Below, piece by piece: positions 17,131 through 37,700 of a stretch of DNA of 64,000 bases; position 1 is the stretch's first letter; each line of letters begins with the position of its first letter. This stretch comes from Escherichia coli. GTDB lineage: Bacteria > Bacillota_I > Bacilli_A > RFN20 > CAG-826. The stretch is taken from the NCBI GenBank assembly GCA_963630675.1, contig CAVGNR010000010.1, positions 15,685 to 79,684 of the forward strand. The letters run 5' to 3'. The notes under the pieces are model-generated. The model saw nothing but the letters and a program-made list of their open reading frames with translations, was not told where the DNA came from and made no database searches. A program made the translations under genes and the position numbers.

Positions 17131-17243
17131 GTCCTCTTCACTTTATCGAAAAAGGAAGGGATATTCAAAACAAAATATTTGTTTCCTATGAAAAAATGAG
17201 GTCTTCTCCTTTACTACATCATTTCATAGTGAAGTAGAATTTT

Positions 17244-17322: not shown

Positions 17323-17353
17323 AAAACGTTTTATAATTCTTTTAAGAAATGTT

Positions 17354-18664
17354 ATGTTTTATAGGAAAATTGAAGAAAGAATAAACGATTATTACTTAGA
17401 TAAGGGTGCCAAAATCCTCGTTATCGATGGAGCGAGACAAATAGGGAAGAGTTTTATTATTAGGGAGACTGGTAAAAGGTTCTTTAAGCATTTCATTGAA
17501 ATAAATCTTAAGGATGATTGGGAAGGAAACAGGTTCTTTGAAAATGTTCGCACAATCGAAGATTTTTACTTGCAGGTTAGTGCTCTTTACGGAAATGATT
17601 TAGGTAATGTTTCCGATACGATGATCTTTTTGGACGAAATACAATCTTATCCTCATTTGCTAACGATGTTAAAGCCGTTAAAGGCTGATGCTAGGTATCG
17701 CTATATCTGTAGTGGTTCTCTTTTAGGGATCACCCTTCAACATACTTTTATTCCAATGGGCAGCATCGACGAAGTGAAAATGTTTCCCATGGATTTTGAG
17801 GAGTTTCTTTTGGCAAGTAACGTTGGGAAGGACGTCATTTCTTATTTAAGAAATTGTTTTGTAAAGCGAACTCCACCCACAGAGGGAATCCATAAAACGA
17901 TACTGGGGCTATTTAAGCGTTATTTGCTTTCTGGCGGTCTTCCTGATTCTGTAAAAGCCTTCGTGGAAGCAAAGAACGTTTATGAGATGAGAGAAAATCA
18001 AACCCTCACCTATAAATATTATTCTGATGATGCAGCAAAATACGACAAGGAACATTCATTAAAAATAAGACGTATCTACGATTATTTGTCTTCCTATATG
18101 GAAAATAAAGTCAAACGTATCCAATTTAATAAGATCGAAGGAACGTCTAAAGCTTCGATGGGTCGTTATCAGGATGAATTTGATTACTTAATCTCTTCTG
18201 GTTGCGTTTTAGATGCTAAAGCCGTTAGTAATCCGGTATTTCCTCTTTGCCAATCAACAAGTAAAAATCTAATAAAACTCTATTATAACGACGTTGGATT
18301 ACTTACTAATATTTTGTATAAGAACAATATCGATGCCCTTTTAAATAAAGACCGTGGAGTTAATTTAGGTAGCGTGTATGAAACGGTTTGTGCGATGGAA
18401 TTATCTGCCCATGGGCATGAATTGTACTATTTTGATAGCAAAAAAGTCGGGGAAGTGGACTTTTTGCTCAATGATTACGAAAACACGTCTATCCTTCCTA
18501 TCGAAATAAAATCGGGGAACGATCAAAATAATTTTAGGGCTATACCCAAGCTCGTAAAAGAGCCTTACAACCTACGGCAAGGCTACATTTTCGGGAATGA
18601 AAACATCATTGAAGAGAAATCGAATTTGATTACTTTTCCAATATACATGATTATGTTCGTTTGA
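17354..18664 (+). CDS. AAA+ ATPase with DUF4143-type C-terminal domain
   Basis: Walker A GARQIGKS, Walker B IFLDEIQ, C-terminal EVDFLL...LPIEIKSGN. Confidence 0.85.
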   Translation: MFYRKIEERINDYYLDKGAKILVIDGARQIGKSFIIRETGKRFFKHFIEINLKDDWEGNRFFENVRTIEDFYLQVSALYGNDLGNVSDTMIFLDEIQSYPHLLTMLKPLKADARYRYICSGSLLGITLQHTFIPMGSIDEVKMFPMDFEEFLLASNVGKDVISYLRNCFVKRTPPTEGIHKTILGLFKRYLLSGGLPDSVKAFVEAKNVYEMRENQTLTYKYYSDDAAKYDKEHSLKIRRIYDYLSSYMENKVKRIQFNKIEGTSKASMGRYQDEFDYLISSGCVLDAKAVSNPVFPLCQSTSKNLIKLYYNDVGLLTNILYKNNIDALLNKDRGVNLGSVYETVCAMELSAHGHELYYFDSKKVGEVDFLLNDYENTSILPIEIKSGNDQNNFRAIPKLVKEPYNLRQGYIFGNENIIEEKSNLITFPIYMIMFV

Positions 18665-18714
18665 GATTTTATTCTTTTCTTACTTATGACTATTTGATGT
18701 GTACGAATCATTAA

Positions 18715-19092
18715 TCAAAGCATGGACTTAACCCAAGAAAGAAAACTAGGATAGTCTATTTTTCCAGATGCTAGGGAGAGGAACTCTTTAATCACTTCCT
18801 CATTTGTTGCTTTTAGTGATATGCCATTGGCATCAAGACTTAAGTCTAGCACTTTTGCGGTGATTCTTTTGTTTCCGTCTACGAAAGGATGATCCATAAC
18901 CAAACCGAATGAAAGCCGGGCTATCTTATCGATTATCGTGGGATAGAGGTCTTGCGAATCAAAGGTTTGAAGAGGGGTGTTTATAGCTGAATCTAACATG
19001 GCCTCATCACGGATTCCGTCACCGCCACCGTAATTGCTGATCAACTCCGAATGAAGGAAAATAATATCTTCTTTCGAAAGGAAGAAACTCAT
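18715..19092 (-). CDS. doc: Doc (death-on-curing) family Fic-fold toxin
   Basis: HPFVDGNKRI motif, 125 aa, 4-nt overlap with the upstream antitoxin gene. Confidence 0.85.
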   Translation of the reverse strand: MSFFLSKEDIIFLHSELISNYGGGDGIRDEAMLDSAINTPLQTFDSQDLYPTIIDKIARLSFGLVMDHPFVDGNKRITAKVLDLSLDANGISLKATNEEVIKEFLSLASGKIDYPSFLSWVKSML

Positions 19093-19343
19093 TTTGCTAA
19101 CTCCTCGTATGCTTTGTGATATTTCTTGTCAGATTTCTTCGAGAGTTCTATAAGCATTTTTCTGTCCATGTATTGGATTTCGGTGTTCTTGGTAATCTTA
19201 AAAGGTATACTTTGTTCTCTAAGAGCTTGTTTGGCAAACATATTGAAGGCTGCATTCATCGTGAGACCAAATTCCGAGAAGAGCTTCTCTACCTGCGCCT
19301 TATCATTGGCGTCCATTCTAATTGTTACATTTACACTTGCCAT
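19089..19343 (-). CDS. RelB/DinJ-type ribbon-helix-helix antitoxin
   Basis: Start at MASVNVTIRMD with RBS GGAG upstream. VNVTIRMDANDKAQVEKLFSEFGLTMNAAFNMFAKQALREQSIPF is the DinJ/RelB pattern. Confidence 0.75.
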   Translation of the reverse strand: MASVNVTIRMDANDKAQVEKLFSEFGLTMNAAFNMFAKQALREQSIPFKITKNTEIQYMDRKMLIELSKKSDKKYHKAYEELAK

Positions 19344-19582
19344 AGGTAATATCTCCTTTTTCTGGATACATTTTAGCACTTGATTGGAAAAGAACAAATA
19401 AAAAAGAAGTGCAATATACGTGCAAAACAAATACATTTGCTCAAAAAGTGTAGCGCCGGAACAACAAACGTCACCACTTTCCTTGTTATAAAAACAGCGA
19501 TTAAAACACTAGCCGACCAGTGTTTTCATCGGAAAATATATAAAAAGCTTACCAACGGATAATTGTGGTGGGAGGCTAATAA

Positions 19583-19822
19583 ATGTATTTAAAACGAGAT
19601 ATCGATCAAAGAGAAATCAATCTTCTTTATGTGGATAGGAATGCCATCTATCCTATCGAAGTCAAAAAAGGCGAAGCACCAAATAAACGGACAAAGAACT
19701 TTAACGTTCTGTCGAAATACCATATGGAGATAAAACCAGGACTGGTGGTGGATTGTTGCGATAAAATGCGTCCAATTAACGAAAAAGCCTATACTTTCCC
19801 CGTTTATTTGTTAGGAGCATAA
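19583..19822 (+). pseudogene. C-terminal remnant of a DUF4143-type ATPase
   Basis: Only the nuclease-like tail survives (EINLLYVDRNAIYPIEVKKGE...YTFPVYLL). There is no AAA domain upstream. Confidence 0.7.
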
Positions 19823-19972
19823 ACATGAAATGAGCTAAGTGGTCTTAAACGACATCGCTCTTTTGAAATGGAGAATAGAGATTTTTGGTGGTTCATCTCC
19901 TTTGTTGATGAATGTCATGTGACTATGTGTCACGTTGTCCATAGGAGAAAAATTTATTTACTTGCTTGAATG

Positions 19973-20002
19973 TCCTAACTAAAATTTTTGCAAGTTCTTG
20001 CA
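19973..20002. repeat. 30-bp direct repeat (TCCTAACTAAAATTTTTGCAAGTTCTTGCA), downstream copy
   Basis: 29/30 identical to 21301-21330. It contains the palindromic word TGCAAG-TT-CTTGCA. Confidence 0.85.
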
Positions 20003-20042
20003 CATTTAAAATTTAGAAATCGATAAGATTATGAGCGAATTT

Positions 20043-21293
20043 CTAGGATTTTATGGAATCTGGATCGATAAGGAATTCCTTCAAACCTAGGAAGAGAGTT
20101 CCCTTATCGTCTTTCCATTTCTTGATGTTATTTCTTACGACGATGATCTTTTTGAAACTGTCGTTGATGTGTAGCAATGATTTTTCTTCCTGCTCTCTTT
20201 TTCCTTTTTCGTCGATAGTAAGTGCAGATTGTATGTAATATCTTTCATATCCGAGATTACAAACAAAATCGACTTCCAGGTTCTTTCTTACATAGTTGTT
20301 GTTCTCATTCTTTTCGCCGATTGTTACAACGCCGACGTCTACTTTATATCCACGGATTATTAGTTCGTTGAAGATAATGTTTTCCATGATGTGATTTTCT
20401 TCTTGCTGCCTAAATCCCAGCCTTGCGTTTCTTAGCCCGATATCGGTGAAATAATATTTTAAGGGAGTGTCTATATATTTCTTTCCTTTGACGTCGTACC
20501 GATACGCTTTCTGTAGCAAAAAAGAGTCGACGCAACAATCCAAATACTGTTTTATCGTGTTGGGCGCCACATCGATGTTTTTAATGGATTTGAATGAATT
20601 TGATAGCTTGTTTGGATTCGTCAATGACCCGACGCTTGAAGAGACGATGTTCAAAACATCTTCTAGAACTTCGGTGTTCCTGATGTTGTTACGATTGACG
20701 ATGTCTTTAATATAGGTCTCAGTGAATAGATTTTCTAAATAATTGATCTTTTGTTCGTCACTCTTGCAGGTTAAAAGGTAAGGCAACCCCCCAAACATAG
20801 AATATTCATTCCACGCGTCATCAAAATCCATTTTGCAATAATCGAAATATTCTTTGAAAGACAGTGGTGATAGGTAGATTTGATCACCTCTTCCTCTAAA
20901 TTCCGTGATAATGTCTGAAGAAAGGAATTTTGCGTTGCTTCCTGTCACATACACATCGACATTTTTAATGTGGAGGAAAGAATTCAGGACGCTTTCAAAG
21001 TCGTGAACAAACTGTACCTCGTCTAAAAGAATATAGTATTTACCATTGTCAATAATTTGATTACGGACGTATTCATATAAATAATCCGGATTTTGGAATT
21101 TGATGTTTGATCTGTCGTCTAACTGTAAGGCGATTATATGGGATTTATCGACGTCGTTTTCTAGTAGATAGTTATAGAATATTTCGAATAAAAGGTATGA
21201 TTTACCGCATCTTCTGATACCAGTGATTACTTTTATCATCCCGTTGCCCATTCGGTCGATGAGCTTTTTTAGATAATCATTTCTTTTAATCAT
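20043..21293 (-). CDS. AAA+ ATPase with DUF4143-type C-terminal domain
   Basis: Walker A GIRRCGKS, Walker B ILLDEVQ, C-terminal EVDFVC. Confidence 0.85.
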   Translation of the reverse strand: MIKRNDYLKKLIDRMGNGMIKVITGIRRCGKSYLLFEIFYNYLLENDVDKSHIIALQLDDRSNIKFQNPDYLYEYVRNQIIDNGKYYILLDEVQFVHDFESVLNSFLHIKNVDVYVTGSNAKFLSSDIITEFRGRGDQIYLSPLSFKEYFDYCKMDFDDAWNEYSMFGGLPYLLTCKSDEQKINYLENLFTETYIKDIVNRNNIRNTEVLEDVLNIVSSSVGSLTNPNKLSNSFKSIKNIDVAPNTIKQYLDCCVDSFLLQKAYRYDVKGKKYIDTPLKYYFTDIGLRNARLGFRQQEENHIMENIIFNELIIRGYKVDVGVVTIGEKNENNNYVRKNLEVDFVCNLGYERYYIQSALTIDEKGKREQEEKSLLHINDSFKKIIVVRNNIKKWKDDKGTLFLGLKEFLIDPDSIKS

Positions 21294-21300
21294 GGCCTTC

Positions 21301-21330
21301 TCCTAACTAAAATCTTTGCAAGTTCTTGCA
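21301..21330. repeat. 30-bp direct repeat, upstream copy abutting the RBS of the 20043-21293 ATPase
   Basis: TCCTAACTAAAATCTTTGCAAGTTCTTGCA. The TCCT end is part of the minus-strand AGGAGAAGG RBS. Confidence 0.85.
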
Positions 21331-21379
21331 TAAATATTATACAGCATGACGTTGACAGTAACGATTAATAAATAAAATT

Positions 21380-21395
21380 TTTGCAAGTTCTTGCA
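21380..21395. promoter_or_regulatory. third copy of the word TTTGCAAGTTCTTGCA
   Basis: Exact 16-mer, 65 bp from the copy at 21315-21330. Confidence 0.55.
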
Positions 21396-21617
21396 TTTTT
21401 TTAACCAAAAAGCCGTCTAATCCAAAGAACGCCGCAAAAAACTGTTTTGAAAGTGCCTAAATCTTCGATTGACCTTGGATTTCTTATTTACTAGATTTGG
21501 TTTGAGGACGATGTTCTTGTTCAAGGGCGTTATAACCGCCATACAAAGCATGATTCCTTGTTGATTTGAAAAAAACAACGCTCTTGCGGAAATATGTCTT
21601 GAAATGGTACGCAAAAC

Positions 21618-21711
21618 TGTTCATTTGTAGTGAACAATATTGCTAAATAGTGAAAAAGTGTTCAGTAGTAGTGAACAATAATGTTGTATAGAGACAAAGT
21701 GTTCAGTAAAA
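21618..21711. repeat. three GTTCA-N7-TGAAC-type words at 41-bp spacing with no intact gene attached
   Basis: TGTTCATTTGTAGTGAACAATA (21618), TGTTCAGTAGTAGTGAACAATA (21659), TGTTCAGTAAAA (21700). The first overlaps the ATG of a 46-aa minus-strand ORF (21484-21624). Confidence 0.6.
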
Positions 21712-22003
21712 TTTTGACTTTGCTAAGCCGAAGGTTCGTTCATGAAATGCTTTGTTCCATTTCGATAGCAAAAACATCTTGCTTAATATCTTACTTAAAA
21801 AAGAAGCTAAATCGTTGATAGATTTACAAGTCTTTTATCATCGCCTTTATGAACAAACTGTGTCTGCTAGGTAAATCTTTATTCTCCAAACAAAGGGCTA
21901 TGAGAGCCAGTTCTAGCTAATGTCAGGATAAGCTCGCCATTCACAGCTCTTAAAAATGAGAAACCAATCCCACTTTCTAAGCATCACACACATAAAAATG
22001 GTA

Positions 22004-22054
22004 CTCTCTTACAAAAACTCGCTCATTTTTTAGTAATTATTGATTAAAACTCGC
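22004..22054. repeat. two copies of AAAACTCGCTCATTTTTTA, 32 bp apart, with no intact gene attached
   Basis: Exact 19-mers at 22004 and 22036. The reverse complement reads AAAAATGAGCGAGTTTT, which is a start codon followed by an early stop. Confidence 0.6.
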
Positions 22055-22211
22055 TCATTTTTTATACAAAGACTAGAGTTTATCTTTATAGTTTTTGCGG
22101 GCTTATCATTCGTTATGGTGGTGAGCAGCAAAATTATTTGGATGAAGTTAAAAAACGGCGTCGATATTAACAAAGACCATATTGGAATTGAATGCGAATT
22201 AAAAGGAACCG

Positions 22212-23501
22212 CTAGTCTTTTAGACAACCAATAGGAATGACAAAAACGCCATCCTCTCTTCGATAACCATATTCGGTTCCAGTGATGACAATCTTCAAAT
22301 CAGGGAGTCTCAATGGCATTTGTTTTTCTTTTTCGTTGTATTCTTTGATCAATCTTTCGATTTCACAGAGATGCTTTGCGCCTTCGTCGATTTCACTTGA
22401 ACCTAACTTGAATTCGAGCAAAGCATATCTTCCGTCTTTCAAATGCAACACGCCGTCAGCTTCTAATCCGTATCTGTCATGATAATAAGACATTTCCCCA
22501 CGCATCTTAGAAGAATATATTTTCAGATCTCTTATGCATAATGATTCAAATAGAAAACCGAGTGTTTTGAAATCGGTGTAAAAGTATTCAGGCGATATTC
22601 CAAGAGAAGCGACAGCGATTGATGGATCTATCAAATTTCTTTTTTTACCGGACCTTATCGCTGTTTTGGATCTGATTGCAGGACACCACGGATTGATATC
22701 TTCTATGATATAAAGTTTTTCTAATGCTTCAATGTAATTGCTGATGCTTTTATCGGACGTATCATTTGTTGATTTGACATCCTGATAGATAGTTTTATAG
22801 TCGCATAGTGTACAGATGTTTCTTGAATAGGATCTTAAAATCGCATTTGTCAACTTAGGGCTCCTATTTGCATCATCAATGGACGAGATATCTTTGTTGC
22901 AAATCTGGTATACCAAATCATCGGCAACATCTAATTTGTTGTTTTCATTTTTGATTTTAAAACAGGCTGGCCATCCGCCTCTACAGATTGCAAAGATAAG
23001 CTCTTTTATTGTCAAATTGGAAATACATCCCTTGAAAGAATTCGGATTATCAAATAATTCCATCAGTGAAACTGAACCGTTGGATTCTTCGGATTCATAT
23101 AAACTCAGAGGGTACATTTTCATTGTGCTGATACGCATCGTGCCGGTGTGAGAGACTTGGACATTCTTTGATGTTGAACCAGTCAGAATATATAAACCTG
23201 TTTTCTGCTCGTCATCAACTGACTTACGAATTGCACCCCATATTTTAGGAGCATCTTGCCACTCATCGAACAGCCGAGGTTTGTCGCCGATTAAAAGCAT
23301 GCTCGGTGCATCTTTTGCTGTGCTCAAATATTGGTCCCTTTTTTCTTCATCTTGAAATTCGATAACGCTTTTTGATTGCTGTTTTGCTGTTGTTGTTTTT
23401 CCACATCCCTTAGGGCCGATAATCAGTACTGCTCCGAATGCGTTCAATTTGTCTTTTAAAAGACTGTCCGCGATTCTTGCTTTATATTTCATATACCTCA
23501 C
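22212..23501 (-). CDS. AAA+ ATPase with DUF4143-type C-terminal domain
   Basis: Walker A GPKGCGKT, Walker B RLFDEWQ, C-terminal EADGVL...LLEFKLGS. Confidence 0.85.
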   Translation of the reverse strand: MRYMKYKARIADSLLKDKLNAFGAVLIIGPKGCGKTTTAKQQSKSVIEFQDEEKRDQYLSTAKDAPSMLLIGDKPRLFDEWQDAPKIWGAIRKSVDDEQKTGLYILTGSTSKNVQVSHTGTMRISTMKMYPLSLYESEESNGSVSLMELFDNPNSFKGCISNLTIKELIFAICRGGWPACFKIKNENNKLDVADDLVYQICNKDISSIDDANRSPKLTNAILRSYSRNICTLCDYKTIYQDVKSTNDTSDKSISNYIEALEKLYIIEDINPWCPAIRSKTAIRSGKKRNLIDPSIAVASLGISPEYFYTDFKTLGFLFESLCIRDLKIYSSKMRGEMSYYHDRYGLEADGVLHLKDGRYALLEFKLGSSEIDEGAKHLCEIERLIKEYNEKEKQMPLRLPDLKIVITGTEYGYRREDGVFVIPIGCLKD

Positions 23502-23532
23502 CTCGTTAATATTGTAGCAATTCTAGCTTCCA

Positions 23533-23594
23533 TTTCCAATATTTGTGGCATTTCATTTCCAATATTTGCGGTATCTTGTTTCCAACTTTTGTGG
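23533..23594. promoter_or_regulatory. three copies of the word TTTCCAAYWTTTGYGG at exact 23-bp spacing upstream of the 22212-23501 ATPase
   Basis: Copies start at 23533, 23556 and 23579. Confidence 0.55.
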
Positions 23595-23618
23595 ATACGA
23601 AAGCACTTATTTATAGAC

Positions 23619-23813
23619 ATGGTCGTTCTCTTTGACAAAGAAAAGACAAGGGAATACTCCGGTATAACGAAAAACTTCTTTGACGAATATTTTAAGGACA
23701 GAAAGGTTGCTTACACTTACAAACTTGGGAAAATCAAAGTATACGATGAGCCAAAGACTTTAAAGGAATTTGGTTTAAGAGCTGCTCCTCAATCGTTTGC
23801 TTATGCAAAATAA
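23619..23813 (+). CDS. short ORF, probable remnant related to an internal segment of the 25705-28671 protein
   Basis: MVVLFDKEKTREY... parallels FIDMFVLFGEEKTKEY of the large protein. Nucleotides 23604-23657 resemble 26334-26388 (about 85% by eye). Confidence 0.35.
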   Translation: MVVLFDKEKTREYSGITKNFFDEYFKDRKVAYTYKLGKIKVYDEPKTLKEFGLRAAPQSFAYAK

Positions 23814-23891
23814 CTTTTGTCCTTTTAAAGAATTATTATTCGCACTTATAACAAAAGCCTCCGGTTCCCTGGAGGCAATCTATCTATTTGA

Positions 23892-23943
23892 TGCGCCTGG
23901 CAGGAATTCAACCTGTATGAGTTGCCTCATTAGATCCTAAGTC
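23892..23943 (-). repeat. decayed copy of the 3' half of tRNA-Leu (att-like direct repeat)
   Basis: 50/52 identical to 28747-28798. One mismatch destroys the T-loop (TTCAATT to TTGAATT) and CCA reads TCA. Weaker similarity continues over the adjacent terminator hairpin. Confidence 0.85.
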
Positions 23944-24308
23944 CTATATAGTCCTTTCTTTTCTTTGGAAGAGCAAAGTGCATCCGATCGGAACAGGACG
24001 GAAAATAGTGTATTGTTTCCAGTCAAAAACACGAAAAAGAATGCCAACAGCATGCGTATATTGTCTTTGCGGACGTGCTGTGGGTGGAAGCAGAGGGCTA
24101 TGACAAGCCTGCTTTTTGAGACCCGCCAAGTGACCGTGTTTCATCAGTCGGAACACCCTTTGTTCTTGAGAAAAATATAACAAAACAAAATGCGAATGCA
24201 AGGGGAAAAGAGCAAAGATTTCATTGAACTTTTTTGATGTTCGGATAGGGTTTTATTTAAGGGATTCGGGCACATCGATTTCTTAATAAAAATTATAAAA
24301 TTCGAACA

Positions 24309-25098
24309 CTATACTCGCTTTATTTCCACTGGTATTTCTTTATATTGTTCTTCATCTATCGCTTTCAGTATTCCGCATAAAGGGACGGGTTCATTCTTGT
24401 TTTTAATCATGGTGAGCCGGAACGGAAAATCTGGAGCTAATCCGCGACTGATTGAACGAAATAACCCATTATGAAACGAGCCGTCGTCTAACTCGATATT
24501 CTCCGCTTCGCCAGCCATCATCATGGAATCGCTTTTGCTTTTTACCGAAATTTCATTTAGTTTTTCATCCGTAAGAATTAGGAATCGTGTTATAGGTTCT
24601 AAATAAGTGATAGCTTTTATCTCTATTTCTGTATTTTTGCTTGAATATGTGATAATCGCACGAATGTTCTCGTATGTTTGAAAAGATGGGACAAAAGTAT
24701 TCTCACCTCTTATAACATCGATTATTTGTCTAATTCCGAATTCTAATCCTTTGCCGAAAATATCGATGTATAAATTTTGCATCAATAAATCGGGCATTAG
24801 GCAATCATCTAATTTGACTGGTACTAGTTTAATTTTGCTGTTAGTTGTTTTGTACAAAGCGTTCTGCCACTCAAGTTCTACCATTTTGCTTTGAAGACTG
24901 TTTTTCGAAACAAAAAAAGAAAAAGAAGTCACAGTCGAAAAGGCCTTTGTTCATTTTATCGATAATCCCCTCCCCAGGTTGTATCGACCAGGAATCATAA
25001 AAGACATTTTCTTTTCCGAAAACGTCTGCTAATCGTAATGCTATGGGCTCTACGACGATTTTGTCCTTGCAATTGTGGCTAATAAATATATGTGGCAT
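24309..25098 (-). pseudogene. Toll/interleukin-receptor (TIR) domain protein with an unassigned C-terminal domain, interrupted by a +1 slip in a T7 tract
   Basis: N-terminal ORF HIFISHNCKDK...SWSIQPGE...LFDCDFFFFF. The second frame continues VSKNSLQSKMVELEWQNA. Removing one A from the A7 run at 24912-24918 joins them into about 262 aa. Confidence 0.75.
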
Positions 25099-25369
25099 TT
25101 AAAATTTCCTTTCTTCAAACAAAAAAGTTTGATAATTCGTGCGATTCAATAATTAATTATATAGTACAGCATTTTATATAACACGGCATTGGCCATATCT
25201 CGGATCCTTGGAGAAACAATTTGCCTACTTTGGCACCCAATATCTATAAATGTCATCTTCATAGCCGGCAATAGGATTTCGGTTATTGAATGGTTTTTTA
25301 GAAAACAAAGCACGATAGTTTTTTGCTTAGCTACCATTTCGTTTTGTAGCAGTTGATAAGGGGGTTTTT

Positions 25370-25489
25370 ATGGATATCTATGAGAAATACAAAATCCACG
25401 TTATAAACGGGAGACGCTACTACGAGTGCAATGTGAATGAAAAAGCTTCCCTTTTTAGACAATACGACTCCCTATTATTTCAAATATAA
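25370..25489 (+). CDS. small ORF (39 aa) upstream of the metallophosphoesterase gene, possibly itself frameshifted
   Basis: RBS AAGGGGG lies 6 nt before the ATG. An adjacent out-of-frame segment continues KDIEIYDNRWMMLALRLSRKLDN. No recognisable family. Confidence 0.3.
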   Translation: MDIYEKYKIHVINGRRYYECNVNEKASLFRQYDSLLFQI

Positions 25490-25704
25490 GGATATAGAAA
25501 TCTACGATAACCGGTGGATGATGCTGGCTTTAAGATTATCCAGAAAATTAGATAACCGGCCTGATGAGGCGAGAGGACCCCGTTCCTAAATCTCCATAAA
25601 AAGAATGCAGAAGAAGGAGAATATTTCCCTTTTGCAGTATGATAGAACTTAGTTGGAATTCTATTCATAACGGAATGACAAAGGGCGTTCAGGAGGAGCG
25701 AATA

Positions 25705-28671
25705 ATGAATGGCCTGGATTTGATGAAAGTTGAAAAAGAATTATTTGAGACTGAAAAAGGTTTCGAAAATCTAAAACAAAGCCAACAAACCCTCTTTTTA
25801 AAATATTTAAAGAAGACGAATAAAACGAAAACCGTTTTATCCAAAAGGGGATACGACATCCTTTCGGATAAATTTTTCGCCCAAACATACACCTTAGAAA
25901 GAAATGATGAAGGCAAACTGTTGCCTGTTATGCATCATGAAATGTTTGCCACCTTTAAGGCATATTTTGATTATTTGGGCGGGGACATGTATACGAATTC
26001 CTGCTATTTCGGGTATGAATTCAGCGAAAAAGAAATTAAAGAATTCAATCTTCAAACAGAGCATTTGAATTTCGAATCGTTTATTGATTTTGATGTAGAC
26101 GATGCGAAAAACGAACTGATTCATGAACAAGAAAAGAGCGACCGCTCGACTACTAAATCTAGAAATGGGTTCCACAAATGGATTATGCAAGAGCATTCTG
26201 TAGATACTCCAGAAGAATTTGGCAAATTACTAAAAAAATATGACTACAGCAAAGGGGTTGCCTTTCTTTTGATAAAAAACGGCGATCAAAAGTTAAAAGA
26301 CGCAGCATATAAATGGTTTTGTGAATATCAATTCACTTGTTTTATAGACATGTTCGTTCTCTTTGGCGAGGAAAAGACGAAGGAATACATCGATGGATAC
26401 AATCCGATTAATTACGTTAAACAAACTATCTATCGAAAGAAACGGGAACTGAAGGATATGTTCGAGGCCTGGAAGAACGGGGAGGTGTATTCTGAAATCA
26501 AGGAGAAAGGCTATAACGAGGACATCGGAGTTTATTATGTTACAAGGAACTATAAAGCTCCCGGTTTTTTCTTTACTTCTTTCACGAAATATTTTCTTAC
26601 CTTCGGGGAGTTTGCTAAAGAAGTGAATTACGATTTAAAGGGCGCTTATTTATCGAAGGCCCCGCTTGATGAAATTTCTTTGAAGAATTGTATCGTTGAT
26701 GACACGACAAAATTACCAACCACTTCGGTCAAGGGAGAACCATCGTTTAGCATCGTTGGAAAACGTTATAGTGAGGAACATTTTTATGCGAGCGTCGAGA
26801 TGACTTATGGGAAAACCACGACGAGAAAAGACTATACTTTCGACTACATATGTGATTTCATCCATTTTTTGAAGAAAGACTTGTCAAATGCAGACTTATA
26901 TGACTGCAATAATATTTCACGCCTAAGTAAAATAACGGGTCTAAACGTTGAGCGAGCAAAAATGAAATTGGATGGCATTGAAGCTTTTAACTTGCAAAAA
27001 GAGAAGAATCTTATTCTCCCTTCTTTGCCTTGTGTCTCTTTCGAGGTAACAAAAGACAATGAACTAGAAACCCTTGGCCAATATAGATTGGTTTCAGCAG
27101 AGCAAAACGAATACACGCTCCCCGTATCTTATATGAGTGACATACATCTTACGCATAAATTATTGGCTCATTCTTGCAAGACGATATACGATGCGGAAGA
27201 AGAAATTCATGAACTCTCGAATGTTTTCTTTAATGGAACGCAAACTAAGATTTCTTTGTTTGCAGGCGACCTTACTGACAAATTCGATTTATATGAGAAA
27301 TTTTTGAAGCGTCCGAGTTTGTTTCGTCACAGGAATAAGTTTTTCTTCACCTTAGGGAATCACGAGCTTTGGGCTTTCCCGAATCAAAGTTTGGAAGAAA
27401 GAATAACCAAATACAGATGTCTTTTGGAAGATGAAGGCCTCAATCTTGTTCAAAACGATGTCTATTATTTTCCATCTGCTGACCTCTTTTTCTCAAGAGA
27501 TCCTATTAGGATTAGCGAACAAGAATTGAAGACTCTATCCTCTAATGAGCTTCATAAAAAACTGAGGGATGCCTCTCTCATTATTTTTGGAGGCATTGGT
27601 TTTGCTGGCGCCAATCCTACGTTTAACGCTACGAGCGGCATTTATCAAAACGTTTTGAGTAGAGAAGAAGAAATAGAGGAGACAAAAAAGTTCTGTGATT
27701 ATTACAAGAAAGTTATCGATGCGACAAAGGGAATGCATCTTATTGTGCTGACCCACATGCCAGTGAAGGATTGGCTTGGCGAAGAAAAATACGAGCCTGG
27801 AGTCTTATACGTTAATGGTCACACTCACAATAACTATAGATACGACGATGGGATAAAAAGAGTCTATTCAGATAACCAATCGGGATACATGTCTAAATCG
27901 ATTTCGTGGAAAGAAACTTCCACTGACTTTGGATTCGACTGGTTCAAAGATTATAAAGATGGCATTTATCCAATAAGCCTTGCTGATTACCGAGTGTATT
28001 ATCGTGGAATCAATGAGAGGATGAACCTCAAGAAAGAACCTGGGCAACTATATCTTTTAAAACGAGATGGCTTGTATATGTTCCTTTGCAAAGATGAAAA
28101 ACTGTATTTCATGCAAGGCGGGAAGAAGCTTAAATTAGAGAGCCAAGATGTTCATTATTATTACGAAAAGATGAGAATTTATGCACGTTCTATCAAACAA
28201 AGTCTTTCCGAATATGAATCGGCCCAAAATCGTATAGCAAGCGAAATCAAAAAGATTGGCGGTAGTGGTCTTATCCATGGTTGTATCATCGATATCGATT
28301 ATTTCAATCACATCTACCTTAACCCTCTTGATGGCAAGATAACGCCTTACTATGCGTCTTTCATGACCGCTAAAACAGCCTATCAAAATATCGTCAGTCT
28401 TCTAAGTGATAAATGTCCAACGTTGTATTTCAAATATCAAGCTCTCATTGACGGTACAAAAAGCAACTCATTAACGATTTTAGGCGATAATAAGATTTCA
28501 AAAAAGACGCATTTCGTAACGGATACCAAGATATATCGTATTTCTAGACTGATTAAACAACTTCAATTCATTGGGGACCATGGCTTGGTAAGACAATGGA
28601 ATGACGAGATTTCCAGTAAAGAGAACGAGTCTCTTATTTTGAGAGATATGCTTATCGGAGAAGAACAATAA
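25705..28671 (+). CDS. 988-aa multidomain protein with a central calcineurin-like metallophosphoesterase domain
   Basis: RBS AGGAGG lies 8 nt before ATG 25705. The five MPE motifs occur in order: SDIHL, AGDLTD, GNHELW, LTHMP, GHTHNN. The N-terminal ~480 aa carries three degenerate F-x2-F/Y...L-x2-D-L modules. The C-terminal ~260 aa is unassigned. Confidence 0.8.
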   Translation: MNGLDLMKVEKELFETEKGFENLKQSQQTLFLKYLKKTNKTKTVLSKRGYDILSDKFFAQTYTLERNDEGKLLPVMHHEMFATFKAYFDYLGGDMYTNSCYFGYEFSEKEIKEFNLQTEHLNFESFIDFDVDDAKNELIHEQEKSDRSTTKSRNGFHKWIMQEHSVDTPEEFGKLLKKYDYSKGVAFLLIKNGDQKLKDAAYKWFCEYQFTCFIDMFVLFGEEKTKEYIDGYNPINYVKQTIYRKKRELKDMFEAWKNGEVYSEIKEKGYNEDIGVYYVTRNYKAPGFFFTSFTKYFLTFGEFAKEVNYDLKGAYLSKAPLDEISLKNCIVDDTTKLPTTSVKGEPSFSIVGKRYSEEHFYASVEMTYGKTTTRKDYTFDYICDFIHFLKKDLSNADLYDCNNISRLSKITGLNVERAKMKLDGIEAFNLQKEKNLILPSLPCVSFEVTKDNELETLGQYRLVSAEQNEYTLPVSYMSDIHLTHKLLAHSCKTIYDAEEEIHELSNVFFNGTQTKISLFAGDLTDKFDLYEKFLKRPSLFRHRNKFFFTLGNHELWAFPNQSLEERITKYRCLLEDEGLNLVQNDVYYFPSADLFFSRDPIRISEQELKTLSSNELHKKLRDASLIIFGGIGFAGANPTFNATSGIYQNVLSREEEIEETKKFCDYYKKVIDATKGMHLIVLTHMPVKDWLGEEKYEPGVLYVNGHTHNNYRYDDGIKRVYSDNQSGYMSKSISWKETSTDFGFDWFKDYKDGIYPISLADYRVYYRGINERMNLKKEPGQLYLLKRDGLYMFLCKDEKLYFMQGGKKLKLESQDVHYYYEKMRIYARSIKQSLSEYESAQNRIASEIKKIGGSGLIHGCIIDIDYFNHIYLNPLDGKITPYYASFMTAKTAYQNIVSLLSDKCPTLYFKYQALIDGTKSNSLTILGDNKISKKTHFVTDTKIYRISRLIKQLQFIGDHGLVRQWNDEISSKENESLILRDMLIGEEQ

Positions 28672-28692
28672 GAATCAATACTCTCTTTTAAC

Positions 28693-28727
28693 AAAAAAGC
28701 CTTGAAGATAGTCTTACTCCCCAAGGC
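28693..28727 (-). terminator. rho-independent terminator of tRNA-Leu
   Basis: GCCTTG...CAAGGC stem followed by a T6 run on the minus strand. Confidence 0.6.
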
Positions 28728-28743
28728 AAATTTCTTATATTTT

Positions 28744-28827
28744 TGGTGCGCCTGGCAGGAATTGAACCTGTATGAGTCGCCTCATTAGATCCTAAGTCTA
28801 ACGTGTCTACCATTCCACCACAGGCGC
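28744..28827 (-). tRNA. tRNA-Leu, anticodon UAG, with encoded CCA
   Basis: Hand-folded. 7-bp acceptor stem GCGCCTG/CAGGCGC, anticodon stem TTAGA/TCTAA with loop CTTAGGA, long variable arm, T-loop TTCAATT. There is one A-C mismatch at position 49:65. Confidence 0.9.
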
Positions 28828-33321: not shown

Positions 33322-34773
33322 GTGAAAAACTATCTTTCGATTTTAGACAATCTGCCTTCTACTATCCTCCAAAGAGGTAAAGAGTATTTTCAAGAAGGCA
33401 AAGTGAAAGATTTTCAATACGTAAATGGGGAATGTTCCGCAAATATCGAAGGAAAAGAAAAATATCATGTCTCCTTGCGTTTAAATGACGATGGGTCATT
33501 TTCTTATCACTGTTCTTGCCCTTATCCCCATCTTTGCAAGCATGTTGTTGCTTTAGCATATATGGCAAACGAAGAAGACAAGAAAAAATACCAAAATATC
33601 TATGCGGAGCTTCTTTCCAAAATCCGTTCCGTTTCTTTTTCAGAATCTTTAGAAGAATTTAAAGGTTTGCCTTATAAGATAAATGGCTTTTCTGCCCAGT
33701 TAAGTGAGGAAGAGAGAAAGAAACTAATCATTCTCTACCTTAGCAATATGGCAAAAGTCCTTCCTTTCTTTGAGAATGGAAATATCGTGGAACGTATCTC
33801 TTTATTTGAGGAGAAAGGGAAATGGAACGACGCTTATTTAGAAGAAATTATTCAAGGCGTTCTATTATCTTTAAAAGATGATCTAGAAGGAAGTCTTCGT
33901 TTCCTTACTTCTCTTCTAAAAGAAGAAAGAACGTCCTCTTTCATTCAACGTTACCTAGTGCGTGGAGATATCTCTAATGAAGCACAAGCTAAGAATTGCC
34001 TCGTTTGCCTTTCAGGAAAGAATCTTCCCCATAAATTATTGCCTGAATTCGTTCTTCTTTTAGCAAAGAAGTCTCCTCGTCTTTTACTTGAGAAAGACCT
34101 ACGTAACGCCATCAATTTCTATAAAGAAGAAAGAGATGGGAATGATGTCTCTTTCCTTTTGAAGCTTCTTTTCGTTAGGGGAGGGGAAGAAACCCTCCGC
34201 GAAGAGGATTTTATTTTCCTTCAAAAGATGGGTCTAACGAATGATGCAAGAGAACTTGCTCTTTCCATTCTTAAGAAGTCTGAGGAGTTATCCTCCTACC
34301 TTCGTTACCGCAAGATGTTCTCTCCTTCAGAATTCTTTCGTGTTTCTTATGAGTTAGAGAATATCATTCGTTATAAGAAATTCAAAAATGCTGCTCTTCT
34401 TATCGACGGGAAAGAATATTTCCCTGACCTTTATGAAGATTTCTCCTATGCCCTTCTCTCTCCAAAAGATATCTTTCTTCTCAAGGATTTCTTAAAAGAA
34501 AAGAAAGAGATTTCTCATCTTGTTCAGATATCTCATAGAAGACTAGAGATGGAATTTAAGAAAAAGAAGAGAAACAAAGAATATTTCTTCTATCTTCTTT
34601 TTCTAGATTTCTATCAAGACGATTCTCTTTCTTATTATCTATTGTCCAATGAAGTCAAAGAAGACATATCTGAATCCTATTGGAAAGGAATATGGCTCTA
34701 TCTTCTTGAAAGAAATCATCTTCTAGGACGTATCTCTTTTTATCCTTATGAAGGAGTATCCCCATGTTTTTAA
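33322..34773 (+). CDS. SWIM zinc-finger protein (YwqB-like partner of the SNF2 helicase)
   Basis: CSCPYPHLCKHVVALAY (CxC...CxH). GTG start. It overlaps the downstream SNF2 gene. Confidence 0.7.
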   Translation: MKNYLSILDNLPSTILQRGKEYFQEGKVKDFQYVNGECSANIEGKEKYHVSLRLNDDGSFSYHCSCPYPHLCKHVVALAYMANEEDKKKYQNIYAELLSKIRSVSFSESLEEFKGLPYKINGFSAQLSEEERKKLIILYLSNMAKVLPFFENGNIVERISLFEEKGKWNDAYLEEIIQGVLLSLKDDLEGSLRFLTSLLKEERTSSFIQRYLVRGDISNEAQAKNCLVCLSGKNLPHKLLPEFVLLLAKKSPRLLLEKDLRNAINFYKEERDGNDVSFLLKLLFVRGGEETLREEDFIFLQKMGLTNDARELALSILKKSEELSSYLRYRKMFSPSEFFRVSYELENIIRYKKFKNAALLIDGKEYFPDLYEDFSYALLSPKDIFLLKDFLKEKKEISHLVQISHRRLEMEFKKKKRNKEYFFYLLFLDFYQDDSLSYYLLSNEVKEDISESYWKGIWLYLLERNHLLGRISFYPYEGVSPCF

Positions 34774-37700
34774 GAAGAAACAAAGAAAAAGGGATAGAGA
34801 GGGTGAAGGATTATCTAACCTTCTATGGGGTAAAAGATATTTTAAACGATCTTGAAAAAGGGAAATACCACCTCTGTTTCCAATATAATCAAACGAAAGA
34901 GTGTTTGATTTATAACGCCTATTGGAGTGATTATTCTTTTCTTCCGAAGAACACTTTCATTGAGATAGAAGTCTCTTCGAATGGTCTTCTTTTAGAAGAG
35001 GAGCCAGACATCTATCAAATGGCTCTTTATGTTTATCTTTTTCAAATTGAAAACGAATTAGACCTAGATACCCTTAAAAACCGTTACTTAAGCATCCTCC
35101 CTCTTCTTAAGGAAGCCCCATCCTTAGAAGAAAAAGAGCAACTTGAACGTAGCAAACTCCGCCAAGAATTCCTCTCTCTTTTCGATGAAAAAGGCGGGGA
35201 AAGCCCTCTTCCTTTAAATGAACCATCGAGTGGAAAATGGGAACTTATTACCAGTTTTCAACAAAAAGAGGGGAGATATGCGCTTTCTTTGGAGATGTGG
35301 GATGGAGAAGAAAAGAAAATACCTATCTCGCCCATCATTCCTTTCTTAGAAAAATATTCTGAAGAAGGAGCGTATTTCTACCATGCTTCGCTATATTCTT
35401 TAGAACATCGTTTCTTCTTAGAAAAGGGACAAAGAATCTTAGGATACCTTGTCGCATTAACGCGTGGGAAAAACGATTCTTTTTCGAGTGAGATTCTTCT
35501 TGATGAGGAAGAATTTGGGGATATGGTGGAAATCCTTTTGGGGGAAAACCTCTATCTTAATGGGGAAAGCTATTATGTGATGAAGGATTCTCTTAAAGCA
35601 GGTTTCCGTTATAAGAATAACGGGGACGTGGAGTTAATTCCACCCATTGAGGAATATAAACGTTGTCATTCTTTGCTATTGCATAATGGTCTTCTTTATT
35701 TTGATGATTATTCTTATGTCGTCACCCTTTATCGTTTTGCAAATTTAACATCTAAAAAGGTCTTTGCTTTCTTCTTAAAACACGGTTTAAAGGATGCGTC
35801 TTTAGTAAACGACATCCTTAAAAAGAAGATGGTTCTTTCTTCTTCTTTAAAGAGTGAGGATATAGCAGATCGTTTTCAAATCAATCTATATGTGGATATA
35901 TCCGATAATGGGTCCCTTTCTTTTAAAACGGTCTATCTTCTTTGTGAAAGAGAAGTTAAGAAAGAAGAAGCAGTGCTTAACGCTTCTTTTGGCAGTGAGA
36001 TTGCTCTTTATTTAGCCGAATTAGAAAACCTTGGTGGAAAAGAAGAGGGTATCCAGGATAATCAAAAAGAAGCCTTGAAATTCCTTCAAAGCGATCTTTC
36101 TTCCTTGAAAAAGAAAGCGAAAATCTTTCTCTCAAAGAAGCTATCTCGAAGCAAAATCACCCATATGGGTGCCATATCTTTGCATATTGAACGTCATGAA
36201 GATTGGCTTTCCTTGAATGTGAAATCGAAGAATTTCTCTTCGGAACAGCTTTCTTTGATTCTCGAAGCCTATCGTAAGAAAAAAACCTACCTTCTTTTAG
36301 GGGATAATATCATTCTCCTTGATGATCCAAAGATACAAGAATTAAACGAAATCAAACAAAAAGAGAAACTAGACCGTTCTTTTGGCAAAGAGAGCATGGC
36401 TTTCTCTGAAGCTTTCCGTCTCGAAAATGAATATGGGGATGGCCAGATTAAGCTAGAGAAAGACTCTTCTTTAAAAGAAGCCTTCCTTTCCTTAAAGAAC
36501 TTCAAAGAAAACAAAGTGGAATTAAAACCTTCTATTGAGAAAGTCCTTCGTCCTTATCAGAGAATTGCAGTTCAATGGCTAAATTGTCTTTATGAAAATC
36601 ATCTTGGTGGCATTCTTGCAGACGATATGGGATTAGGAAAAACATTAGAGACCATAGCTTTCTTATCTAGTTTAAAGAAAAACGAACCATCTCTGATCAT
36701 TGCGCCAAAAAGTGTTATCTATAACTGGGAAAAAGAGTTCTATACCTGGGATAAAGAAACAAAAGTTATTGTCATTGATGGCTCAAGAGATAAGAGATTA
36801 GAAATCATCTCTTCCATAAAGAAAGATGAAAAGGTCATATACATTACCTCTTATGATTCATTAAGAAATGATTTATCAAGCTATCTTCCTCATCATTTCG
36901 ATACTCTTATCACCGATGAAGCCCAGTTGATTAAGAACTATTCTGCTCTTAAATCGAAAGCGGTCCGTAACATATCTTCTTACACTCGTTTTGCTTTAAC
37001 GGGAACTCCAATTGAGAATTCCATGGGGGACCTATGGTCGATTTTCGATTTCTTGATGCCAAATTACTTGAATACATATGGTATTTTCAAACAACGTTAT
37101 ATTCTGGCGGGGAATCAAGAAGAGGCACGTTCCTCTTTAAGAAAGAGAATAACGCCATTCTTGCTTAGAAGAACAAAGAAAGAGGTTCTAAAGGAATTAC
37201 CACAAAAAGTGACGGAAGTAGTTACTTTAACAATGGATGAAGAATCGAGGATCCTTTATTCATCCGTTTTAGAAAAAGCCAAGAAAGAACTTCAAAAGAG
37301 CAAAGAAAACATCGCCGAGAACCATGATCGTTTCTCCTCTTTCTCTTTTTTGCCTGTGCTAACTTCTCTTCGAGAAATCTGTGTTAATCCATCCTCATTC
37401 TTTGAAAATATCAAAGGAATGTCCACCAAATTCTCCTATGTTACGGAATATGCGGAAAAGAGCATTTCCAATGGCCATAAGCTTTTGATTTTCTCTTCCT
37501 TTACGAAGGTGTTAGACAACCTTCGTGACCTTTTAAAAGATGAAGGCATTGCTTCTTATTATATTTATGGCGAAGTGGATGCTAAAAAACGACTCGAATT
37601 GTCTAATAAATTCAACAAAGAAAAAGACGTGTCTGTGATGCTCGTTTCCTTAAAAGCAGGGGGGACGGGTCTTAATTTAGCGGGTGCCGATGTCGTCATT

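Follow-up and report, generated by a model that had tools for sequence, protein, structure and literature searches.

The 64-kb stretch of DNA analysed here (hereafter, the window) contains one tRNA gene, a minus-strand tRNA-Leu(UAG) that was detected by both ARAGORN and Rfam (56.6 bits in Rfam). A 4.8-kb islet separates this gene from a partial copy of its 3' part, which extends from the anticodon loop to CCA in direct orientation and is identical to the intact gene at 52 of 55 positions (Table 1). The original prediction gave the repeat as 23892-23943 and 28747-28798 with 50 of 52 positions identical, and this count was reproduced in that narrower range. It listed two differences in the copy, a change of the T-loop C to G and a change of CCA to TCA. 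Both changes exist, but the total is three over the 55 nt: the second difference inside the narrower range is in the loop of the variable arm, where G has become A, and the change of CCA falls just outside that range, so that it is the third. The 9-bp core TCCTAAGTC is unmutated in the distal copy (23935-23943) as well as in the live tRNA, and the three substitutions lie elsewhere in the copy.

Table 1. Positions of the features at the tRNA-Leu(UAG) islet in the window
Feature	Position	Strand	Remark	Source
Older, probably native tRNA terminator hairpin (GCCTCCAGGGAACCGGAGGC, then T-run)	23857..23876	-	just downstream of the decayed tRNA part	terminator scan
Probably displaced, decaying tRNA-Leu(UAG) 3' part	23889..23943	-	anticodon loop to CCA; putative distal att site
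Left arm, non-coding	23944..24290	+	common to a family of units at tRNA-Leu(UAG)	alignments
Intact iteron GCGGACG	24069-24075
Decayed iteron GTGGGTG	24080-24086
Decayed iteron GCAGAGG	24090-24096
Decayed iteron TCGGGCA	24266-24272
TIR-domain gene, frameshifted	24309..25098	-	262 aa on read-through	both halves match Pfam TIR_2
Homology breakpoint inside the islet	25560..25562	.		blastn and boundary sequences
Mre11/SbcD-like metallophosphoesterase gene, main cargo	25639..28671	+	1010 aa	Pfam Metallophos, E = 7e-11
Hairpin GCCTTG...CAAGGC, then T-run, probably element-borne	28699..28727	-	putative terminator for the rebuilt tRNA	read from sequence
Functional tRNA-Leu(UAG)	28744..28827	-	28744-28798, 3' part probably supplied by the islet	ARAGORN, Rfam
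Putative crossover core TCCTAAGTC in the live tRNA	28790-28798		anticodon loop, 28790-28796

A 30-mer search of the window with up to three mismatches found just these two sites, with 0 expected, and an ungapped 55-mer scan of both strands scored 52 and 55 matches there and no more than 29 elsewhere. Thus, the copy is not one of many dispersed tRNA-Leu fragments; had it been one, this would have counted against an insertion, as was named in advance. No additional decayed tRNA part, arm or integrase remnant turned up in a search of the window. In the related strains L053 and L054, the orthologous distal copy matches at 51 of 55 positions, and its four substitutions are all different from the three in the window; the copies therefore appear to have drifted independently from a perfect repeat.

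The islet carries two cargo genes. The TIR gene is split by a frameshift, a single additional base in a homopolymer that reads A7 on the plus strand (24912-24918). More than 1100 homologues, about 260 aa long, were found for the read-through protein; one of them (P0028) is intact, 99% identical and encoded in the same islet of L053 and L054. The TIR segment is confined to the window and these two strains. The matches of the TIR protein in PADLOC and NCBIfam are at the domain level only (TIR-NLR, PDC-S66, retron-TIR and ThcB4) and far below the curated cut-offs, although judging from its sequence the TIR domain resembles those of anti-phage proteins. The metallophosphoesterase is much rarer, with 12 homologues among 5.8 billion proteins. 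Its phosphoesterase domain is central (about residues 495-760), and the catalytic residues D518, D544, GNHE 573-576, H706 and GH-H 727-730 are invariant in the alignment. The AlphaFold2 model of the protein has a mean pLDDT of 75.8, and its best fold matches in the PDB are Mre11 and SbcD (E about 2e-4). The protein had no match in PADLOC and NCBIfam. Since these genes lie in a region full of candidate defence genes, both are probably anti-phage.

As the original prediction stated, there is no integrase or recombinase gene between the repeats, where the split TIR gene and the metallophosphoesterase gene are the only sizeable genes. The integrase and excisionase of a related conjugative element (ICE, described below) gave no tblastn match in the whole window, and no recombinase domain was found in the scanned window ORFs of at least 150 aa (the ORFs at 33.3-40.6 kb were judged from precomputed annotations). 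An integrase and a conjugation module, by which an ICE is recognised, are both missing from the window and both present in the element of the relatives, as in L018. Base composition does not set the islet apart: its GC content is 0.33-0.40, against 0.33-0.42 outside. Within the islet, homology to other strains changes sharply: to the right of 25560 there is a Metallophos module common to L003, L007 and L014-16, and to the left the cargo differs by lineage, so that the unit is a mosaic and not a single inherited block. A core-like site at 25584 (TCCTAAATC), 25 nt from this breakpoint, was attributed to chance; it is not kept in L014 or L003. The only Rfam match in 23500-25700 at a relaxed threshold, a snoRNA, was likewise judged to be due to chance. 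To the left of the decayed copy, 12 of 17 residues of a 74-aa ORF equal residues 234-250 of the metallophosphoesterase, a similarity too short to interpret.

Both copies of the tRNA 3' part are followed by a hairpin. The hairpin beside the decayed copy has its homologue directly after the intact tRNA in L005, L010 and L012, which are metagenome contigs of a sister lineage with core DNA about 83% identical to that of the window. Over the decayed copy and this hairpin, these contigs are 88.9% identical to the window (99 nt, including the tRNA part); the decayed copy thus adjoins what is the tRNA terminator of the empty allele. The same contigs match the window at 23845-23943 and then again from 28743 onwards, and because the two blocks of homology overlap by exactly the 55-nt tRNA part, they contain a precise empty site, as had been proposed to be looked for in relatives. 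To the left of 23845 they have no homology to the window, and thus the allele is empty only with regard to this unit. If all relatives had carried the same 4.8 kb with the same flanks, a fixed duplication would have been indicated; instead, the relatives are polymorphic here, and contigs with an identical HAD protein carry the Metallophos unit, the ICE or neither, which is polymorphism within single lineages.

The hairpin next to the live tRNA, the live 3' part and the Metallophos gene occur together in every strain that has them (the window, L003, L007, L014-16 and L053). This co-occurrence bears out the claim that a tRNA 3' end and a terminator came in with the inserted DNA. The loop of this hairpin is 17 nt, which is longer than the terminator scan accepts. 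A further claim, that the similarity of the two sites continues for about 50 bp beyond the tRNA end, turned out to be marginal: it is not significant at 50 nt, where about 20% of shuffles score as high, and borderline at 80 nt, where 14 of 2000 shuffles and 24 of 2000 genomic windows do so. Together, the sequences support the view that the decayed copy is the displaced older 3' part and that the live 3' part arrived with the islet and its own terminator. The islet bounded by tRNA sequence and devoid of an integrase is confirmed as a genuine observation, and the interpretation of its repeats as attL and attR gains support from the polymorphism of the site, the precise empty site and the uniqueness of the copy in the window.

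Next to the decayed copy, on its islet side, lies a non-coding left arm that is also present in other units at tRNA-Leu(UAG). It is 83% identical to the arm of a GmrSD-containing unit in L014, 80% and 73% to arms 2 and 3 of L053, respectively, and 64% to the arm of a decaying ICE in L033. The other integrase-less units have four near-invariant GCGGACG iterons in this arm, whereas three of the four are mutated in the window, whose arm also lacks a 10-nt block. Among the four other arms, 26 of the 28 iteron columns are invariant, as against 179 of 363 columns elsewhere (Fisher p = 4.6e-6), which makes the iterons the best conserved stretches of those arms; they are presumed to be binding sites for integrase or excisionase. 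Window-specific changes affect 7 of 26 iteron columns and 26 of 179 elsewhere, which is not a significant difference (p = 0.15); the loss of iterons in the window therefore looks like general decay and not a specific event. The single hexamer GTCCGC is not enriched over the whole window (4 occurrences versus 2.7 expected), and only its clusters in the arms, not its single occurrences across the window, are meaningful. An exact 22-mer of the arm had no match in the metagenome collection, nor had the iteron block and the ICE ATPase in viral contigs.

In the sister strains, one to three such units are arranged in tandem. The order in L014 is Metallophos, terminator, a perfect 55-nt tRNA part and an arm with four GCGGACG iterons, followed by GmrSD, a DUF4143 ATPase, an integrase fragment, a hairpin and then the tRNA. 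This integrase fragment is 85% identical to residues 32-71 of the ICE integrase, and the L014 arm is a mosaic of other arms. L053 has the islet of the window with an intact TIR gene and then two more units, in each of which the arm starts directly after ...CCTAAGTC. The motif ATTCCTGTAATTA, common to the right ends of the ICE and the L014 unit, is not present in the window.

The ICE of the relatives joins the host tRNA at TCCTAAG, and identity begins there in L004, L018, L024, L027 and L031. It encodes a tyrosine integrase of 452-455 aa, an HTH_17 excisionase-like protein, a TraG/VirB4-like ATPase, ArdC and a primase-polymerase. One end of the ICE has seven GTCCGC repeats at most 165 nt from the tRNA junction, which is the same hexamer as in the iterons of the arms. 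The carrier L018, part of contig UQFY01000001.1, is the GTDB representative 'uncultured Mollicutes bacterium UMGS237', and its core DNA is 94.9% identical to that of the window. In the same five contigs, the intact ICE does not restore the host tRNA and carries a whole tRNA of its own. Its integrase is 100% identical in two different chromosomal backgrounds (L006 and L024), which suggests that the ICE is currently spreading. In the decaying ICE of L033, the integrase is truncated, and the right-hand part of the element shares 98.8% identity with the ICE; at the left junction, the tRNA 3' part is followed by an iteron-containing CTATAGAG-arm homologous to that of the window. Flanks of 10 kb did not reach the left end of the intact ICE, which places this end more than 10 kb away from the integrase.

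We consider it probable that the region 23944-28743 is a decayed, CIME-like remnant, one unit of an array formed by site-specific accretion at tRNA-Leu(UAG). In this scheme, a tyrosine recombinase would insert a unit by crossing over in the anticodon loop, at the 9-bp core. The unit would bring along a tRNA segment from anticodon loop to CCA together with a terminator, and the junction on the right would thus restore the tRNA. The older 3' part and terminator would be pushed to the left-hand junction, where they would drift as a pseudo-site. A unit without an integrase is expected if it is a decayed derivative or a dependent of an ICE family that uses the same core. From the shared core, the shared hexamer, the arm of L033 and the integrase fragment of L014, we infer that the unit descends from the ICE by deletion; an intact parent that combines an arm of the window type, a full integrase and a right end that restores the tRNA was not found. 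The missing integrase, which the original prediction regarded as unusual, is indeed absent; given a family of decayed units tied to an ICE, it is not an anomaly that requires a new mechanism.

The age of the islet bears on whether it can still move. The Metallophos module is 84% identical between the window and L003, with core DNA of about 83% identity, and 92.9% identical between the window and L014, with core DNA of 94.7% identity; the unit is present in every assessable contig of the lineage of the window. By these comparisons, and by the independent decay of the distal copy in the window and L053, the islet is old: it has co-diverged with the chromosome, and its insertion is no recent event but precedes the separation of lineages whose present divergence is about 17%. 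An alternative is that the islet is still active and can be mobilised in cis or in trans, an ICE integrase encoded elsewhere in the genome or brought in by conjugation acting at the two cores. This would agree with the unmutated state of both cores and of the adjacent left half-site, with the one remaining iteron and with the present spread of the ICE itself. Furthermore, strains differ by whole units, and the perfect 55/55 repeats of the L014 unit suggest a recent insertion in a sister strain. However, the damage to the near-invariant iterons and the deleted arm block, the divergence that tracks the core genome throughout the lineage and the absence of an integrase from the 64 kb make activity unlikely, and the mosaic arm of L014 suggests that units are lost by homologous recombination from arm to arm and not by site-specific excision. 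With three of the four iterons mutated, three substitutions in the distal att site and co-divergence with the chromosome, the islet is most likely immobile in this strain.

The co-divergence of the Metallophos module with the core DNA could also mean that the islet is not unitary: the Metallophos gene, terminator and tRNA would be native, and 23845-25560 would be the left junction of another element, moved here by a separate rearrangement. The sharp left edge of the module at 25560, the variation of its neighbours by lineage and the occurrence of the TIR segment only in the window, L053 and L054 fit this explanation. Nevertheless, it demands an additional, unexplained transposition that placed a tRNA 3' part upstream in direct orientation, and it does not account for the contigs L005, L010 and L012 from the same population, which lack Metallophos and have the other terminator directly at the tRNA. 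In L014 and L053, moreover, Metallophos, terminator and 3' part act as the right end of a unit and the next arm follows them; we thus regard a native Metallophos module as quite improbable. Still less credible is that the repeat is an artefact of a chimeric metagenome assembly, in which variants of different strains were fused at a conserved tRNA, or that it arose when the tRNA region was locally duplicated in tandem. A reason for caution is that two Logan contigs from the only sample with these exact proteins (SRR13434651) both end inside the tRNA, one on each side. However, independent assemblies cross the left junction (L053 and L054), and the junction of Metallophos, tRNA and HAD on the right is also found in independent sister-lineage assemblies (L003, L007 and L017). 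The boundaries also match, to the base, the anticodon-loop core used by an integrase-bearing element, and the interior of the islet is unrelated to its flanks, which argues against a tandem duplication.

Integrase-less remnants of the type that we favour are already well known, and the islet adds another example. It resembles the CIMEs and tandem accretions described for ICESt1/ICESt3 of Streptococcus thermophilus and the streptococcal tRNA-Lys islands (PMC5704250), since it is flanked by att repeats, lacks integration and transfer genes and is related to an ICE with the same att site; in both cases, newer elements insert at the target-proximal att site to give tandem arrays, and decayed and intact elements coexist. 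It differs in its target, the anticodon loop of tRNA-Leu(UAG), and in its host, an uncultured gut lineage that depositors have labelled Mollicutes or Bacilli. Moreover, its cargo is made up of candidate defence genes, and its arm sites and distal att site are decayed, so that it is to be seen as a fossil and not as a CIME of proven mobility. With genomic islands integrated at tRNA genes by tyrosine recombinases it shares a direct repeat from the anticodon loop to CCA (55 bp), an empty site in relatives, a tRNA apparently rebuilt by element DNA and a displaced 3' part at the far end. Unlike these islands, it has no integrase beside the tRNA and no compositional anomaly, and it is old enough to have co-diverged with its host.

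The tRNA-dependent lysogeny of actinobacteriophages (Guerrero-Bustamante and Hatfull 2024, PMC10865867) is comparable with the ICE of the relatives alone, which disrupts the tRNA and supplies its own, although that element is conjugative rather than a phage and occurs in gut bacteria to which depositors gave the labels Mollicutes or Firmicutes. In contrast, the islet of the window has the ordinary design in which the tRNA is restored from a 55-nt copy. As in defence islands at tRNA-linked hotspots, variable cargo (TIR, GmrSD, restriction-modification, DUF4143/PDC-S01 ATPase and Fic/RelB) is swapped between strains; here, however, each unit is set off by the repeat of the tRNA part and the conserved iteron arm after it, and this gives the array a cassette-like regularity that accounts of defence islands do not usually mention. 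A tentative and somewhat doubtful possibility is that the locus is an integron-like array of defence genes, in which the integrase of the co-circulating ICE acts in trans to insert, excise and reorder the cassettes. Each cassette, itself without an integrase, may then run from an iteron arm through cargo and terminator to a tRNA 3' part, and the islet of the window would be the oldest, fossilised cassette. The ICE itself may use a 'tRNA-dependent' integration that disrupts the host tRNA and supplies its own.

Our results remove the apparent paradox of a tRNA-bounded island without an integrase, as the family of the enzyme that would have made it is identifiable in the same lineage. They also document, for a human-gut lineage that is uncultured and has received little study, an ICE family aimed at the anticodon loop of tRNA-Leu(UAG), for which the conserved iteron arm may serve as a mark of the dependent units. 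The locus is a hotspot at which candidate defence genes are exchanged, among them those for a TIR protein, GmrSD, a restriction-modification system, DUF4143 ATPases and the Mre11-like phosphoesterase. The 1010-aa phosphoesterase family has no described function and is a reasonable candidate for a new single-gene defence protein.

The source of the window, identified from the HAD protein that flanks the tRNA locus, is an uncultured human-gut bacterium, whose relatives carry the depositors' labels 'Firmicutes bacterium' or 'uncultured Mollicutes bacterium'. Sister-lineage contigs were retrieved (L numbers denote related metagenome contigs), all of which encode an identical HAD protein and have core DNA approximately 83% identical to that of the window. 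Downstream of the tRNA, they have three different states: the hairpin CCTCCAGTTTCCTGGAGG directly after the tRNA (state 1; L005, L010, and L012), the metallophosphoesterase (Metallophos) gene after the tRNA with the GCCTTG...CAAGGC hairpin as in the window (state 2; L003, L007, and L017), or a large element that cuts the tRNA in the anticodon loop (state 3; L004, L006, L008, L009, and L013). L005 matches window 23845-23943 at 88.9% identity and the sequence from 28743 onwards at 82.9%, and the stretch common to both matches is exactly the 55-nt repeat. State 1 is a precise empty site for the islet. The decayed copy and its terminator are therefore the displaced older 3' end, and the live tRNA 3' part and its own hairpin arrived with the islet, as originally proposed. 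In L005, an older unit with a DUF4143 ATPase and an integrase fragment is broken by a truncated piece of an IS30-like transposase (L005:2745-3300); debris of several kinds of mobile elements accumulates at the tRNA locus.

Features of the window around tRNA-Leu(UAG), and arms homologous to that of the islet
Feature	Location	Strand	Remarks
Schlafen/AlbA_2 protein	5203-6678		
PDC-S27 ATPase	9784-11208		
DUF4143/PDC-S01 ATPases (four)	12176-13528, 17354-18664, 20043-21293, 22212-23501		
Fic/RelB pair	about 18.7-19.4 kb		
Terminator of decayed copy	23857-23876		
Decayed copy	23889-23943		matches tRNA 3' part (28744-28798) at 52/55
Islet	23944-28743		
Islet arm	23944-24290		non-coding, first ~350 nt of islet
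TIR-domain gene	24309-25098	minus	split by one extra base in a homopolymer (A7/T7; A7 at 24912-24918)
Metallophosphoesterase gene	25639-28671	plus	1010 aa
tRNA-Leu(UAG)	28744-28827	minus	single tRNA in window by ARAGORN and Rfam
Homologous arm, unit with GmrSD	L014 and L015		83% identity
Homologous arms, two further units	L053		80% and 73% identity
Homologous arm, left end of decaying ICE in another host	L033		64% identity

On the tRNA strand, the decayed copy differs from the live tRNA by CCA to TCA, the conserved T-loop C to G, and G to A in the variable-arm loop. The identity of 50/52 reported originally for a narrower range was counted correctly, and the differences, given as two, total three, with the CCA change just beyond that range. 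Past the tRNA end, the similarity said to continue is weak, falling short of significance over 50 nt and being borderline over 80 nt (p ~0.01). Neither an ungapped 55-mer scan nor a search tolerant of mismatches found a further copy of the tRNA part in the window. The original observation is confirmed, and the interpretation of the repeats as attL and attR is supported. Logan contigs L001 and L002, from the one sample containing the exact proteins of the window (SRR13434651), both end inside the tRNA, at about window 28782-28785. Because they stop there although the two window copies of the tRNA part have no common exact 31-mer, the co-existence of strain variants at the tRNA locus in this sample is suggested.

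Two sizeable genes, encoding the TIR-domain protein and the metallophosphoesterase, lie between the repeats. No recombinase was found in the islet or among the scanned ORFs of at least 150 aa across the 64 kb, and the integrase of the relatives, used as a tblastn query, had no match in the 64 kb; both searches agree with the earlier remark that an integrase is absent between the repeats. The large element of state 3 is an integrative conjugative element (ICE) with genes for a 452-455-aa tyrosine integrase, an HTH_17 excisionase-like protein, a TraG/VirB4-like ATPase, ArdC, and a primase-polymerase. The ICE joins the host tRNA at TCCTAAG in the anticodon loop (window 28790-28796), the same point where the repeat of the window ends. 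Beside the junction, the ICE has seven GTCCGC repeats in approximately 165 nt. Behind them, at a distance of approximately 290 nt from the junction, lies a complete 85-nt tRNA-Leu(UAG) gene that belongs to the ICE. The ICE does not rebuild the tRNA; it shares with the host site only the 9-bp core TCCTAAGTC, and the host 5' half is orphaned. This tRNA-replacing design was found in L018 (L018:14882-15280) and also in L004, L006, L008, L009, L013, L024, L025, L027, and L031. The orphan 5' half and its promoter are oriented towards the tRNA of the ICE, and, speculatively, read-through expression of that tRNA is conceivable.

L018 (UQFY01000001.1, 'uncultured Mollicutes bacterium UMGS237') is the one species-representative genome with the ICE integrase, and its core DNA is 94.9% identical to that of the window; therefore, the ICE resides at tRNA-Leu(UAG) in the lineage of the window itself. 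The same integrase (100% identity) occurs in tRNA-Leu(UAG) of L024, which has another chromosomal background, and L027 and L031 have the same design with integrases 68-70% identical to it; the family is therefore active and spreading. L036, L038, L043, and L044 have integrases 87-89% identical to that of the ICE, without GTCCGC clusters and with a tRNA-Leu(GAG) gene 4-5 kb away; these integrases may be a sister subfamily with another target and other arm sites.

The arms homologous to that of the islet begin immediately after ...CCTAAGTC. In the other arms, four GCGGACG repeats (iterons), the reverse complement of the ICE hexamer, are almost invariant (26/28 invariant columns in the iterons versus 179/363 elsewhere, p = 4.6e-6), and they are presumed to be bound by the integrase. 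In the window arm, only the first iteron is intact, and the rest read GTGGGTG, GCAGAGG, and TCGGGCA. Just past the iterons, two plus-strand terminator-like hairpins (window 24095-24156), conserved in other arms, may shield the cargo from outside transcription. In the closely related L014 (core DNA 94.7% identical to the window), the order is Metallophos, hairpin, a perfect 55-nt tRNA part, arm, GmrSD, DUF4143 ATPase, an integrase-gene fragment (residues 32-71, 85% identical, with a stop codon inside), hairpin, and intact tRNA. L053, 94.5% identical to window 17216-28798, has the islet of the window, with its TIR gene intact, and two additional units behind it. The 3' half of the ICE-type tRNA closes one of these units. 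This 3' half, not that of the host tRNA, is used at the third unit junction of L053 (reverse complement, 15446-15500), and therefore a unit must at some time have entered a tRNA-Leu gene carried by an ICE. In L033, ICE decay itself can be seen: the right-hand part of the ICE is retained at 98.8% identity with a truncated integrase, without conjugation genes, and with new cargo. The arm of L014 (L014:3649-4002) is a mosaic, similar to arm 2 of L053 on the left, to window 23944-24290 in the middle, and to arm 3 of L053 on the right, which suggests that arms and units exchange sequence by homologous recombination or gene conversion, and that this is how whole units are lost.

The Metallophos module is 84% identical to that of L003 (core DNA ~83%) and 92.9% identical to that of L014 (core DNA 94.7%), and it has diverged at the pace of the chromosome. 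The displaced tRNA part has three substitutions in the window and four different ones in the L053/L054 orthologue; thus, each drifted independently from a perfect repeat. Furthermore, the window arm deviates at 14.5% of the columns invariant in other arms and has a 10-nt deletion. The insertion of the islet is ancient, not recent. The cargo left of 25560 varies between lineages: the window has TIR, L003 a restriction-modification system, and L015 a gene of 281 aa together with a Ham1-like gene. The unit is therefore a mosaic.

In the published scheme, an ICE or IME integrates and loses its integration and transfer genes to become a cis-mobilisable element (CIME) with att sites kept, and in tandem accretion, later elements enter the att site beside the target gene (PMC5704250). 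The islet structure fits this scheme, and att sites that extend from the anticodon loop as far as CCA form a recognised sublocation class (bioRxiv 10.1101/2020.11.02.365908). The islet has lost its recombination genes and is related to an ICE at the same site, and it is doubtful that its att sites are still functional. We therefore regard the islet as a probable decayed CIME-like remnant that functions like a CIME, with putative membership of that class. Decay, together with an ICE family acting in trans, would account for the missing integrase. The ICE of the relatives matches the recently described 'tRNA-dependent lysogeny' of actinobacteriophages in its short common core, disrupted host tRNA, and own tRNA of the same isotype (PMC10865867); this likeness holds for the ICE, a conjugative-element analogue, but not for the islet of the window. 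Of interest are the cassette-like regularity of the array, the conservation of the iteron arm, the tRNA-replacing design of the ICE, and the rare phosphoesterase.

The 1010-aa phosphoesterase belongs to a very rare family (12 homologues were found), and its metallophosphoesterase catalytic motifs are all invariant in the alignment. Its predicted structure, of medium confidence, is most like the Mre11/SbcD nuclease domain, and a distant homologue neighbours NOV_C, Fic, and AAA+/S8-protease genes. Proteins of ~260 aa make up the large family of the TIR protein, which is spread across phyla and often in defence-rich neighbourhoods; the domain of the islet protein resembles the TIR domains of anti-phage proteins and scores below family cut-offs. 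An intact TIR allele, 99% identical, sits in the same islet of L053 and L054, and the frameshift in the window could be a strain-specific pseudogene, phase variation, or a homopolymer sequencing error. Neighbourhood context and domain content point to a possible role of the islet cargo in defence, and the rare phosphoesterase may be a new defence protein.

Candidate defence genes are densely packed in the 18 kb left of the islet (window 5203-23501). Three of the DUF4143 ATPases (PADLOC candidate PDC-S01) and the Fic/RelB pair lie at 17-23.5 kb, and such genes are also cargo in the related units of L033, L005, and L014. The region at 17.2-23.9 kb may represent what is left of earlier units of this accretion array after erosion; neither att nor arm remnants were found in it. 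Just left of the decayed tRNA part, 12/17 residues of a 74-aa ORF (window 23589-23813) match residues 234-250 of the phosphoesterase, which may reflect chance or a remnant of an older, paralogous unit. On the downstream side of the tRNA locus, all relatives have a conserved pair made up of a 1056-aa SNF2-family helicase and a SWIM-domain protein (window 33322-37934).
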